Positions 27,796 through 38,393 of a DNA stretch of 64,000 bases are shown here, piece by piece. The notes below the pieces were generated by a model, which was not told the DNA's origin, made no database searches, and was given only the letters and a program-made list of their open reading frames with translations. The position numbers and the translations under genes are program-made. How positions within the stretch are numbered: the stretch's first letter is position 1; each line of letters starts with the position of its first letter. The DNA lies in assembly GCA_963726195.1 (NCBI GenBank), contig CAVSBO010000008.1, forward strand, positions 132,879 through 196,878, in the 5' to 3' direction. The stretch is from Candidatus Thorarchaeota archaeon (lineage in GTDB: Archaea > Asgardarchaeota > Thorarchaeia > Thorarchaeales > Thorarchaeaceae).

Positions 27796-27880
27796 CTATC
27801 TGTCCAAAGTCACTCCGCAGAATGGACAACATGCGCTCTTTCCACTTTTCAAACAATCGACTTCAGTGGCTGGAAGCGCC
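27796..27880 (-). pseudogene. Orphan 3' tail of an LRR-zinc ribbon paralog
   Basis: LPATEVDCLKSGKSACCPFCGVTLDR versus LPQATVDCLKSGKSASCPFCSATIDR at 16102. Confidence 0.75.
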
Positions 27881-28092
27881 TGTCGGAAGCTTAGACAAAC
27901 TTGGGCATCGACTTGTAGGAGCTTATAATCGCAGCCAAGTATCTCAATCGTCGAGATTGAAACGACAAGAGTTCGGCTTCGAGGCGATTGAGCATGGTCT
28001 TGTCTCCGGAGGAACGAACACTCCTGCGTCCAACTTTGTCTAACTAGTGATGATGGGTTTTCCGGCTTTCTCTGACAACGCATGACGGGAAG

Positions 28093-31000
28093 ATGACTAC
28101 AGGATTGTTGCATAACGATGTGATACGACAGAGTGACTTGGACGAGTTGGCACCAAGGTCATCATTGGCGGGCGAGAATCAGAAGGCGAAGCATCTTACA
28201 GTGCGATTGGTGTGGCACGACCGAGCGTGGGATGGTCACATCTGCAACAGGCCAGGCCTGAACACATCATGCGTCATGCATGATTACGTTCGTGGTAGGC
28301 GAAATGATGGACTGGAGGACTCAAATGCAGGAAAGCCCGTTTCAGAGCTAGATTTCATTCCACCGTGTGGCAGCGATATGGGAGCGTTCTCCGGGTTTGG
28401 ATTCAGCATCAAGCACGATGATCCCTTCGAAAGGAGTTCTCTGGGTTCTGTTCAGGAGATTGTCCCACCGTTTAGCTGTGCTGCGCGGCCCTATGGTCGC
28501 ATGCTGGCCGATGATGACACAGAACACACTTGGACAAAAGAGGACGAACAGTCCAGACGACTGGAAGCATTCTTCGATGAGATTAGAGCGGCCGAGTCAC
28601 TAGTCTTCTTCTACGTTGAGCATGCGGATGACCTGGAGGTCGAAAGCGGCGAAAAGGTCGTCGTGGGTGTAAGCACTTTGAAGAAACTTGGTGACCAACT
28701 GTTCTTTGGGTCGAAGGAGACAAACGGACTCGAGCATCCTGTCTGGTCCCGAATAATCACACACGGCTTTCCGAATGAGGGCGTCAGAATTCCCTATCAG
28801 GAGTACATCGCTCAAGGCAAAGATACGTCAGATATCTTGGTGACAGTTCCACGAAATGCAAGGCCCGGGTTTTCACATGTCTCTGAGACTATTTCCGATG
28901 ACGTAGCAGTCGGCGTCCTTCAGAGGATATTCGCCTCCATCCGGCGTGTTCGAGATGATGGCTATGTTCATGGAACATGGGACAAGGCCTTGGTCTGGTT
29001 GGACGAAACGATTGGTCGCCTCTGGAAGGATAGGGGCCCTTGTCCGGGCATTGGACCTGTGCTCAACTACCTAGGTTTTAGAGGGGGCCGCAAGTACGCA
29101 GAGGAACTGGAGTCAGCAGGCAAGGACTTGGGTCAGTTCTTGATTCAGCTGCCCGCGTATACTGGATGGAAGTCAATCGCCGCCAAAACAGAGCCATATG
29201 TGGGATTGGAGTCGCGCGTCGGCGAACTGGAAGAGACTGCCCGCGGCTAGACAGAAGCTGCTTCACATGTTCTGCATTCTCGACATTAACAAGAAGCAAG
29301 TGGACTTCTGGGCAGACCCCGATGCTCGGAAAGAATTGGGGATTAAGTGCAGTGACGAAGATATTCTTGCGAACCGTTCATTGTTAGTTGGACAAAGTTG
29401 GACACAGGAGTCTTCGTCCGCCCAGAAACGGCACTGGGCTCAAACTCCTTGAGGTCAGGTTTGTGTCTTTTCGACCTCAATGATTGAATTCTTCACTGAC
29501 GCTTGTATACTCCTACAGTTTCGTGTCCAGCTTTGTCCAGATTTTCGGCGGCTGCCGCTGACGCCTATTTGCTTTGTGAGCAGAGTTCTGCCACACAGGA
29601 TTAAGCGAGCGTTTCCTTTGAAACAGTGGATCGAGCTTTGTACCGTTCATTGTTAGTTGGACAAAGTTGGACACAGGAGTCTTTGTCCGCCCAGAAACGG
29701 CACTGGGCTCAAACTCCTTGAGGCTGCAGCGTGTCGAGTCAACCTCAAGGAGCAGTCTGGTTCGAGCTATTTAAGCCCCCACTGGAAAATGCCCAAGACC
29801 GTCCAACTTCTACGCAGGCGTTGTCAACCCTGAGGACTCCGGTGTCAAGACAGCAGCCAGCTTGATGTCGCCGGGCCCGCATGAACACAATCGCATGCGA
29901 GCGGCTATGGCGGAGGTGCTTCGGAATGCAGGCAACACCGAAGGACACACGTTTCTTCTCATTGAAGACCTACTGGAGCGCGTAAAGAAGCAGTTCTCGA
30001 GACCGGGCATTTTCATTCCGGACCAGCAGCTCGTGTTGTACAATACTAGCCTCTACGAGCCGGTAGTTGCAATCACGGCTTCTGATTCTGGCCATATCGT
30101 TGAGCTGAGAGACTACGTGGAAATGAACGAGATTGTACACGATAGAATTCGCAGACTCGGAGAGTCCAGAAGCACCACGGTGGATGTAGATTGGGCTCCG
30201 ATCCTCAAGGAGGTTTTGAAGTCAGAAGTCGATGAGAGGGATGAAAGGGAAGTCGCCTCACGAAAGGAAAAGAAAGACGCCCTAAGCAAACTGGCATCAC
30301 ATAGATTGTCAGTACTTGTGGGTGCCGCCGGAACCGGGAAGACCAAGGTGATTGGAGCATTGCTGGCTGGTCTCAAGAAGGCAGAAGGCTCGTTGCCGGT
30401 ACTACTGCTTGCGCCAACTGGCAAGGCCAGAATGCGACTTCAGGAGGAAACATCGGAAGTGGCATTCACGATACACCAGTTCCTCATGGAGAAGGACTGG
30501 ATCAATCCTAAGAACTACGCTCTCTGCAAGGCAGGTGGAAAACTAGCAGAGGTTGACACAGTCATAGTTGACGAGGCGTCAATGGTACCGCTCAATCTCT
30601 TTGCAGCTCTTCTTCGTGCATTCGACTGGAATCGTGTGAGAAGGTTCATTCTCGTCGGCGACCCAAACCAGTTGCCGCCAATAGGGCCGGGAAAGCCATT
30701 TGTCGATATTCTTGCGTGGCTACGCTCGAATGAGAAGACGAAAGAACTGGTTGCAGAACTGATTACGAGGTCAAGGTTCGAAAGCCGGGATAGCGAAGCT
30801 CTTGAACTCGCGGACAGCTATGTCTGGGATTCCAGAGATCCGACAGATGATGTGATGCTCTCTCGGATTGCTAGGTCAGACACAGGCGGGGATCTCGTTG
30901 TCAGGTTCTGGAATGGAAAGGAGGACCTTGAGAGACAAATCGCCGAGTGTATGAACGAGGAGTTAGGCCTCAAGACAGGTGAGAATGATTACAGGTCACT

Positions 31001-32057
31001 TGATGAATCGCTCGGATTCAGCAGCAAAGACCCATCGAAGCTCACTAGCTGGCAGATACTTTGCCCTACAAGAATCCACTATTTCGGATCTGGTGAAATG
31101 AATCGGCTAGTGCAACTCAGATTCAGAGCCCCTCTCATGAAGTCGTGTGAAATGAACCGTGCAAGACCCTTTGGGAGCCAGCGCATAGTATTGCACGACA
31201 AGGTAATCCAGAAAGTGAATAGAAGAAGGCTAGCTTACGGCGGCTTAGGCTCGAAGAACTACTATTATGTTGCAAACGGAGAAATCGGAGGAGTGGAGTC
31301 AACGTCCGGAGGCCCAACATCGGGCGGCGACAAGAACGAAGACAGTCTCAAGGTTCGATTCTCCTCGCAGGCAGACAAGGCATTCTACTATCCACGTTAT
31401 CAAGTTGACATGAATCTTGAACTTGCTTACGCAATGACAGTGCACAAGGCGCAGGGAAGCGATTTCGAGAGGGTGTTTCTCATTATACCCAGAAAGGCGA
31501 GGACATTGTCCAGAGAAGTCATCTATACGGGCCTCACAAGATTCAGGCAGAAGCTCGTCCTCCTTGTAGAGAAAGACATCGAGTCTCTTCTGACATACAG
31601 AAGCCCTGATTCATCAGCAACGGCTAAGCGGCAGACGAATCTGTTCCGAGTCTCGCATACCGCAGTCCCATCCACAGGCTTCAAACCGGAAGAGCTAACC
31701 CATAGAACACGTACTGGCATCCTTGTCCGGTCCAAGTCGGAAGTCATTATTGCGGATGCGCTGTCCTCTCTTGGCCTGTCGTACAAGTACGAGGAACCTT
31801 TGAGAAATCCAAAAGACCCGAACGATTTCGTCCTGCCTGACTTTACGGTCTACCATGAGGGCGAGGTTTTCTACTGGGAGCACCTAGGAATGCTCTCAGC
31901 TGAAGATCAGAGGCGGCGTTGGGAGGCAAAAGAGAAGTGGTACTTGAGGAATCACTTTGCAGAGCGCTTGATTGCGACCCGAGATGGACCCGAGCACGGT
32001 ATAGACTCGCCACAGATTGAGACCATCGCCCGAAGCAAGATCCTTGGTATTCACTGA
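28093..32057 (+). CDS. Large RecD-like SF1B helicase with C-terminal PD-(D/E)xK-like nuclease, interrupted by two inserts, one frameshift and one TAA
   Basis: N-terminal HLTVRLVWHDRAWDGHIC; Walker A GAAGTGKT; VDEASM; GDPNQLPPIG; AMTVHKAQGS; YTGLTR; C-terminal RSKSEVIIAD...PDFT...YWEHLGM. Confidence 0.85.
29376..29563. mobile_element. Fold-back (palindromic) insert 1, 188 bp, inside the helicase gene
   Basis: Removal gives D-I-L-A-N-P-Y-L-L-C-E; 29389-29405 is complementary to 29523-29539 with one wobble. Confidence 0.65.
29644..29828. mobile_element. Fold-back (palindromic) insert 2, 185 bp, inside the helicase gene
   Basis: 29642-29723 equals 29373-29454 with one mismatch; removal gives E-T-V-D-R-A-L-Y-P-E-D in frame with ORF 29862; 29714-29723 pairs with 29743-29752. 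Confidence 0.65.
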
Positions 32058-37961: not shown

Positions 37962-38106
37962 GTTTCCGTCGAAGACTCCTCAGGCCGCTTAATGCTCTTT
38001 TTGTGTATACGCACCATTTATCGTTTTGGAGAACGAGTATTCTCCTCGAAAAGAAACCGACTTCCATGTGTTTCCATTTTTGGTCCGAGCGGAGAGGATC
38101 TTTTTT

Positions 38107-38393
38107 ACAGAACGCGGTCGGGCATCCTTGTTCGGTCGAAGTCGGAAGTCATTATTGCAGATACCTTGTCCTCTCTTGGGCGGCTGTGCAACTACGAGTA
38201 ACCTTTGCGAAACCCAAGAGAGCCTAACGATTTCGTCATGCCTGACTTCACGGTCTATCATGAAGGGGGCATCTTCTACTGGGAGCATTTGGGATTGCTT
38301 TCAGATGAACACTATAGGCGGCGTTGGGAGGCCAAGGAGAAGTGGTACGTGAGATATCACTTTGCAGAGCGCTTGATTGCGAAATGTTCTTGA
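38107..38393 (+). pseudogene. Degenerate copy of the helicase C-terminal nuclease domain
   Basis: RTRSGILVRSKSEVIIADTL...YE*PLRNP...PDFTVYHEG..YWEHLG; homologous to about 31703-31977; in-frame TAA at 38199. Confidence 0.85.

Follow-up and report, generated by a model that had tools for sequence, protein, structure and literature searches.

What has interrupted the helicase-nuclease gene of a Thorarchaeota archaeon twice, within a short distance, with almost the same DNA? The stretch concerned (the window) comprises 64,000 nucleotides of a Candidatus Thorarchaeota archaeon genome (assembly GCA_963726195.1, contig CAVSBO010000008.1, positions 132,879 to 196,878). In it, a gene for a RecD-like superfamily 1 (SF1) helicase-nuclease (28093-32057, plus strand) is broken by two inserts, parts of which form a direct repeat of 82 nt with one mismatch (29373-29454 and 29642-29723). 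A 23-nt core of this repeat occurs twice in the window, against an expectation of zero from 100 shuffles. The inserts are very probably gene-less miniature derivatives of IS607-type transposons, one from each of two subfamilies, which would be mobilised in trans by the recombinase TnpA and carry an omega-RNA-like module. The evidence comes from natural alleles that lack the inserts, from the junctions, from a family of copies in the same genome and from larger elements with the same ends. The source genome (2.9 Mb in 19 contigs, numbered here with the prefix C; 88.9% complete) was searched throughout; the window lies on C8.

Insert 1, of subfamily A, occupies 29376-29563 on the minus strand. 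Its 188 nt consist of a 186-nt body and one 2-bp core. Read on the minus strand, which is the TnpB and omega-RNA strand, its left end is at 29561 and its right end at 29376; it is flanked by CC at 29374-29375 and by CG at 29562-29563, the latter being CC in other populations. Insert 2, of subfamily B, occupies 29645-29829 on the minus strand and has 185 nt, a 183-nt body and the 2-bp core CC at 29828-29829. Its left core CC is at 29643-29644, and its limits slide by 3 nt since ACC is present on either side. The two inserts are 78 bp apart.

Public metagenome contigs from runs X1 and X2 (peat), X3 (freshwater sediment) and X5 were compared with 28800-30400. In X3, a single 468-nt contig covers 29136-29375 and 29564-29641 and continues to 29977; it skips exactly 188 nt and then 185 nt (with 3 nt of ambiguity) and is thus an allele without either insert. 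The limits of insert 1 are unambiguous, as exactly 29376-29563 is skipped. In X2, a contig covering 29432-29639 shows insert 1 to be present, and another joins 29641 to 29827, with the insert 2 site empty. Loose contig ends at 29375 in X1 and X5 continue with CCTATTTGCT.., which is the empty form of site 1; X1 also contains an insert-1 contig (29463-29632). A comparable pair exists in the source assembly, where positions 440-760 of the 4.9-kb contig C9 are the insert-free form of the locus at C10:39217 (C10:39140-39460). C9 is an alternative haplotype, and the source population is therefore polymorphic for a subfamily A insertion. There are three independent empty sites in all: the window locus in X3, the window locus in X2, and C9 against C10. 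The initial annotation had suggested looking for empty sites, and the contigs found skip exactly the predicted stretches. The presence of both empty and insert-bearing alleles in public contigs shows that this is transposition at the DNA level.

The junctions define the type of transposition. The junctions of 16 copies were tabulated on the TnpB strand. Without exception, one GG precedes the left end and another follows ..CAATGAAC at the right end. In 14 of the 16, the left GG has a further G in front of it, and the position before that is usually A; the right GG is usually followed by T. The reconstructed target is about (A)AG-GG-T, that is AGGGT, or ACCCT on the plus strand. The AC^CC insertion site noted at both inserts in the initial annotation is the GG core of this AGGGT-like target seen on the other strand. 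There is no target duplication, and empty sites are scarless. GG at both termini and in the target, together with these last two features, agrees with the IS607 family. Insert 1 departs from the pattern at one base in the window, which reads G at 29563; the insert-1 contigs of X1 and X2 read C. With C, the filled site reads AA-CC-[element]-CC-CCTAT and its empty counterpart AACCCCTAT, so that insert 1 fits a 2-bp CC/GG crossover exactly. G29563 in the window is a later change or an error. Strand exchange would take place over the GG dinucleotide common to the element ends and the AGGGT-like target, which would leave neither a duplication nor a scar. Insert 1 may have arrived before insert 2; the two lie antisense to the gene.

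Both inserts belong to a family of repeats. Insert 1 has 23 matches in its own genome, and blastn with both inserts gives about 24 loci, including relatives that bear TnpB-like and recombinase genes; a genome search of this kind had been recommended in the initial annotation. Subfamily A includes full-length copies of insert 1 at C10:39217, C3:846903 and C4:88316 (89-92% identity; others 76-85%), and subfamily B includes copies of insert 2 at C3:337717, C4:111819 and C16:77462 (88-89%). The subfamilies can be aligned with each other end to end. They share one plan. The left end has two TTGGACA units and a short palindrome; after it come an A/T-rich box, then a hairpin, and finally a right-end module of about 83 nt. 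This module is alike in every copy (74-81 of 83 positions). The right arms noted as differing between the two inserts do so because subfamilies A and B differ, the right-end module being alike in all copies. Within the same taxonomic family, 25 of the 36 genomes searched have the module; the 24 genomes searched from other families of the phylum are all without it.

Each insert keeps about 45 nt of left end and about 66 nt of right end, both with tandem TTGGACA repeats. There are two units per end, 10 bp apart, and they are inverted between ends. At the right ends these are the two AGTTGGACA units at 29385-29403 (insert 1) and the same pair at 29654-29672 (insert 2); their inverted partners at the left ends are at 29523-29539 and about 29787-29806, respectively. 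The subterminal repeats are nearly invariant among 41 related right ends and are probably binding sites for TnpA. In insert 1, TGGACAAAGTTGGACAC (29389-29405) can pair with GTGTCCAGCTTTGTCCA (29523-29539); in insert 2, CTCCTTGAGG.. can pair with ..CCTCAAGGAG (29714-29726 and 29740-29752). A nested hairpin, AGGAGT..CCCAG-AAACGGCA-CTGGG..ACTCCT, is also present. The direct repeat, the inverted pairs, the tandem with 10-bp spacing and the nested hairpin had all been reported in the initial annotation and are found as described; its proposal of a non-autonomous, site-preferring mini-element with repeats of the transposase-binding type is in keeping with the AGGGT-like target, the subterminal repeats and the partner element described below.

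Gene conversion was considered as the cause of the 99% identical arms, which are mostly accounted for by the conservation of the module in all copies. Only three diagnostic bases hint at exchange between the inserts. At 29686-29694, between hairpin 3 and stem 2 of the module, insert 2 has TTTGAGC, which is the subfamily A version; other subfamily B copies have TACGACC or TGCGACC at this position. The difference is a hint that insert 2 exchanged sequence with a subfamily A copy, perhaps the neighbouring insert 1, by recombination or gene conversion.

The same ends are found on larger elements. At six further loci, similarity to the mini-elements is confined to the last ~66 nt, and the sequence then runs into the reverse complement of a TnpB-like gene ending ..GGEYFYCPNCDSHIHADINAARNI.. 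The intact copy of this gene, on C16, encodes a protein of 708 aa (P0001) which matches Pfam Cas12f1-like_TNB and the PADLOC Cas12f and Cas12u profiles. The RuvC D/E/D motifs are visible; against PDB sequences there are only weak Cas12g matches, across the RuvC-II glutamate and RuvC-III aspartate. The gene stands at the right end of a 7.6-kb repeat (C16:21557-29170) which is about 88% identical to C8:106586-114192. On the other strand, head-to-head with the TnpB-like gene, the repeat also has an open reading frame (ORF) of 1,708 aa (P0124), for which there is no match in Pfam, PADLOC or ESM Atlas; it contains a D..ExK-like motif (VLEIKT). An ORF of about 1,700 aa is unusually large cargo for an IS607-type element.

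A third full-length copy, C3:854973-863117, has a frameshifted TnpB-like gene and the shared right end (C3:863119). Adjoining its left end is the only resolvase-family gene of the genome, tnpA (P0125, C3:855049-855675), which accounts for the sole PF00239 match (C3:855244-855618). An N-terminal MerR-type helix-turn-helix (HTH) domain (HTH_17/MerR) is followed in the predicted protein by a Resolvase catalytic domain with the sequence YARVSS; this domain order is that of IS607 TnpA. The left end of the C3 element, ..GAAG-GG-TTGACAACAGCTGCCTAGAAGTTGGACAATCTTGGACA.., is nearly identical to the left ends of subfamily B, including that of insert 2. The mini-elements thus have their ends in common with an element encoding a TnpA that combines MerR-HTH and serine recombinase domains. 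The initial annotation had suggested a search for an autonomous partner bounded by the same ends, and one exists; its enzyme is a serine recombinase, neither a tyrosine recombinase nor a DDE transposase. Mobilisation of the inserts would be in trans, by this single TnpA.

The right-end module has the features of a structured RNA. It extends over 29376-29479 (minus strand) in insert 1, with the equivalent at 29645-29752 in insert 2. Structure was read from an alignment of 41 distinct right ends from this genome and its relatives, in which pairs were counted. It comprises hairpin 1 (GAGGTC..GACCTC), stem 2 (AGGAGT..ACTCCT), hairpin 3 (CCCAG-TGCCGTTT-CTGGG) and a further helix between the loop of hairpin 3 and the terminal AACGG. 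In insert 1, these are placed at 29450-29456/29473-29479 (hairpin 1), 29406-29411/29444-29449 (stem 2) and 29421-29425/29434-29438 (hairpin 3), and the hairpin 3 loop can pair with the terminal AACGG, including core base 29375, as a pseudoknot. Pairing is kept in 91% of cells, and eight pairs have changes on both sides (26 cells). None of 500 shuffles gives as good a covariation score, and sliding the partners lowers pairing to 30-54%. Single-sequence folds have z values of -2.3 and -4.0.

Of 32 mini-elements, 19 have a TATA-like box at 24-28 nt upstream of hairpin 1. Insert 1 has a degenerate AGTATACA at 29504-29511 (minus strand), 28 nt upstream of hairpin 1, and insert 2 has CTTAAATA at about 29774-29781, 24 nt upstream; perfect TTTAAATA or TTTATATA boxes are present in six relatives, in five of them at 25-26 nt. 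The host is archaeal and its genome encodes the TATA-binding protein (TBP), which makes an archaeal promoter a reasonable reading. Archaea_SRP gives a full-length match, with a score below the gathering threshold. The module ends exactly at the element boundary, and the flanks which follow ..AACGG are unrelated among copies. In the genome search, the 22 nt past each right end match their own locus only, apart from the alternative-haplotype contig C9. A conserved structured scaffold that runs to the right-end boundary, followed by a variable flank in the place of a guide, is the arrangement of an omega-RNA. The module with its TATA-like box probably encodes a stand-alone omega-RNA, transcribed from the internal box, in which the scaffold would end at ..AACGG and the adjacent flank would serve as guide. 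In trans, such an RNA could programme the 708-aa TnpB-like nuclease from C16 to cut vacant AGGG-flanked sites, which would favour retention of the element.

The alternative that survives best, although it is doubtful, keeps the IS607 origin and drops the RNA: the inserts would be plain hitch-hikers similar to miniature inverted-repeat transposable elements (MITEs), with a module retained for TnpA binding only and hairpins that are DNA structures or incidental. The most conserved columns do coincide with the TTGGACA repeats and the terminal AATGAACGG, and another inverted TnpA site may be seen in GGACAAAG and CTTTGTCC. However, hairpin 1, stem 2 and hairpin 3 stay paired through the two-sided changes counted above, most copies have the TATA-like box at its constant distance, and the module, like omega-RNA scaffolds, stops exactly at the boundary. 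There is also published precedent for omega-RNAs on elements without genes (PMC10055086, PMC10691335).

Several points weigh against mobile omega-RNA elements as proposed here. None of the TnpB genes sampled has next to it the 5' part of the module, which consists of hairpin 1 and the 5' arm of stem 2, and the 3' region of P0001 itself shares only the last ~66 nt with the mini-elements; a mini-element RNA might therefore not suit the resident TnpB-like protein. Binding of TnpA to the DNA could explain some of the conservation of the module. The columns of the pseudoknot hardly vary, with one compensatory change, so that this helix is weakly tested by covariation, and the TATA-like box of insert 1 is weak (5 of 8 positions). 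We infer both the omega-RNA of the inserts and their mobilisation in trans; the element that bears TnpA has a frameshifted TnpB. The X2 state, with insert 1 present and site 2 empty, comes from separate short contigs and not from one molecule. If G29563 is real, the resulting CG core at the left junction of insert 1 may have immobilised it in this genome.

A third copy bears on how the inserts accumulated. It is a decayed mini-element at 27870-28056 (plus strand), about 71% identical by blastn and with GG at both junctions. It lies in the opposite orientation to the inserts, and its end is 36 nt upstream of the helicase start codon at 28093, a position which may cut the gene off from its promoter. 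AGGGT occurs about 1.5 times per kb, both strands together; scarcity of targets therefore does not account for three copies within 2 kb. Local transposition could account for this clustering, and so could selection or the tolerance of a dispensable gene for insertions. Elsewhere in the genome, one subfamily A copy and one subfamily B copy are found 587 bp apart in inverted orientation (C3:337130 and C3:337717).

A bolder extension of the omega-RNA proposal is unlikely. It treats the mini-elements as self-promoted guide-RNA cassettes with their own 5' scaffold, derived from none of the sampled TnpB genes, which would steer the 708-aa TnpB-like nuclease to vacant alleles. The existence of filled, half-filled and empty alleles in natural populations is what would let such cassettes act as a drive, and clustering would be the outcome of local RNA-guided or recombinase-mediated spread and not of chance. 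The clusters that can be cited for it are the three copies within 2 kb of the defence gene and the close pair at C3:337130/337717.

If the inserts are instead palindrome-associated transposable elements (PATEs) of IS200/IS605 type, they would be moved as single strands by a Y1 (HUH) transposase. An end in common with TnpB-like genes, the lack of target duplication and the hairpins would suit such elements. This is nevertheless very unlikely. There is no PF01797 (Y1_Tnp) match in the genome, which is 88.9% complete, and the shared left end adjoins a serine recombinase. GG cores at both junctions, with tandem subterminal repeats, fit IS607 better than IS605, which has subterminal hairpins and a 5' target-adjacent motif (TAM) only.

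A further possibility concerns the gene rather than the element: the inserts might be removed at the RNA level, as introns, IStrons or archaeal bulge-helix-bulge introns, leaving the helicase functional. The host gene has about 1,196 codons, for an N-terminal domain, a RecD-like helicase and a C-terminal PD-(D/E)XK-like nuclease region, and matches Pfam AAA_19, AAA_30 and UvrD_C_2. It is assigned to family PDC-S68, for which anti-phage defence is the candidate function. The two pieces in the window match positions 4-350 (P0002) and 479-1217 (P0003) of the PADLOC PDC-S68 profile PDLC05065, and a homologue, P0004, matches positions 6-1217 with E = 0. More than 6,000 homologues of the helicase exist, mostly of 1,130-1,200 aa. 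P0004 (1,163 aa) is the closest found, with 73% identity to the helicase part. It aligns with frame 1 to about 29154, with frame 2 to 29375, then with 29564-29643 and again from 29835.

Native helicase coding sequence is thus present between the inserts at 29564-29644 (plus strand; ..YLLCEQSSATQD*ASVSFETVDRALY, with an in-frame TAA at 29602-29604), as the initial annotation had held; the basis is tblastn with P0004, the spliced translation, and metagenome contigs with and without the flanking inserts. P0004 is continuous over both junctions (..DDEILANPYLLCEQSPAAGDERSIPFGIVDRALY..; it reads ..ILANPYLLCEQ..VDRALY..), and so the residues brought together in the spliced protein are contiguous in a homologue. 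When one C at 29152, 29376-29563 and 29645-29829 are removed, 3,591 nt remain and read in one frame, in which the only internal stop is the TAA at 29602. Aligned over 1,163 positions with four gaps, the product and P0004 are 70.5% identical. Restoration of the frame had been proposed earlier; the deletion limits hold and TAA 29602 is real, but the extra C had been overlooked. The window has CCC at 29152-29154 and the contigs of all four metagenome runs have CC. The additional base moves the reading from frame 1 to frame 2; it may be an assembly error in a homopolymer or a frameshift specific to the strain. The gene has four lesions here: the extra C, insert 1, the TAA and insert 2. It is now a pseudogene.

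Exact restoration of the frame on removal is what an intron would give, and IS607-family IStrons occur in bacteria (PMC10690162). Removal as RNA is all the same highly improbable. An Rfam scan of 28500-30500 at E <= 1 gives no intron, ribozyme or known RNA family and one chance snoRNA match; the inserts lack the ribozyme core of a group I or group II intron or IStron, and their structured module is antisense to the gene. The TAA stays in the exon between the inserts, and X1 and X2 have it too, as the four differences listed for their insert-1 contigs are at other positions. Full-length relatives are transposons, and filled and empty forms both exist as DNA. The removable intron-like insertion considered in the initial annotation is not supported on these grounds.

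An artefact, in the form of a chimeric read or of mis-called arms of a perfect palindrome, has next to no probability in spite of a probable homopolymer error nearby (the extra C at 29152), as contigs from independent studies join insert 1 to its native flank (X1 29463-29632, X2 29432-29639) and each right half has further copies of 88-92% identity in the genome, in two subfamilies, and is found in related genomes. The near-perfect palindrome of ~180 bp that had been suspected, with nanopore mis-calling of its right arms, is contradicted by the same data and by the asymmetric order of the inserts (left end, TATA-like box, hairpin, right end), in which inverted repeats span only ~17 nt.

Two observations concern the history of the gene. 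In 60 related genomes, the helicase gene is not found except as short C-terminal fragments, which would suit an accessory gene carried on an island; P0004 and the metagenome contigs therefore served for the comparison across the inserts. Some 6 kb downstream of the helicase, 38079-38384 of the window (plus strand; C8:170957-171262) is 75% identical to helicase residues 605-706, from the nuclease-like C-terminus, and contains one TAA; it looks like the remnant of a paralogue.

The inserts are real, well-defined and recently mobile; elements of this kind are already known, and no new mechanism is involved. The locus illustrates, cleanly and in nature, cut-and-paste of IS607 type in an archaeon. 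It adds base-exact boundaries taken from natural empty alleles, and it fixes the GG core and the AGGGT-like target for the family. From a single run it also adds contigs in which insert 1 is present and in which the second site is empty, and it identifies the disrupted gene. Guide-RNA-like modules on gene-less elements are not confined to IS605 but exist for IS607 too. Here, a candidate defence gene (PDC-S68) has been dismantled stepwise by transposons.

Classical prokaryotic MITEs, such as the SM elements of Sulfolobus, derive from DDE transposons and make target-site duplications. The inserts resemble them in being short, multicopy and non-coding, with inverted repeats near their ends, in interrupting genes and in their presumed mobilisation in trans; they differ in using a 2-bp crossover and making no duplication. 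IStrons, which combine a group I intron with an IS605 or IS607 element, are similar in that an IS607-type element lies in a gene and its removal restores the frame. Unlike IStrons, the inserts are without a ribozyme and antisense, and restoration is seen at the DNA level only.

IS605 elements without genes that carry omega-RNAs have been described (PMC10055086), and stand-alone omega-RNAs are discussed in PMC10691335, which includes a summary of Altae-Tran et al. 2021. As far as these summaries go, such loci and PATE-like IS605 elements are like the inserts in having no effector or transposase while keeping the ends and the guide scaffold, which would work in trans with a TnpB from another locus. 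By the same accounts, they belong mostly to IS200/IS605, with Y1 transposases, single-stranded transposition and a 5' TAM such as TTGAT, whereas the chemistry here is of IS607 type. The module of the inserts also has its own archaeal TATA-like box, and its 5' half stands apart from all sampled TnpB genes.

The closest comparison is with the IS607 family itself. IS607 inserts at GG with a preference for (G)GG and makes no duplication, and its TnpA binds multiple subterminal repeats (PMC6188088). The IS607-type CboIStron has an omega-RNA ending in UCGG, and its TnpA and TnpB recognise the same motif, TGGG (PMC10690162). Members of the family (IS607, IS1535, ISC1926, CboIStron) share with the elements described here a MerR-HTH serine recombinase and a TnpB-type gene at the right end. 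They also share GG at termini and target with (G)GG preferred, scarless empty sites with no duplication, and subterminal repeats. The differences are that the inserts are gene-less and that their larger relatives, of 7.6-8.1 kb, combine a divergent 708-aa TnpB-like protein with an ORF of ~1,700 aa in an archaeal host. The -3 position differs between target and terminus in both systems: AGGG against ACGG here, and TGGG against TCGG in CboIStron.

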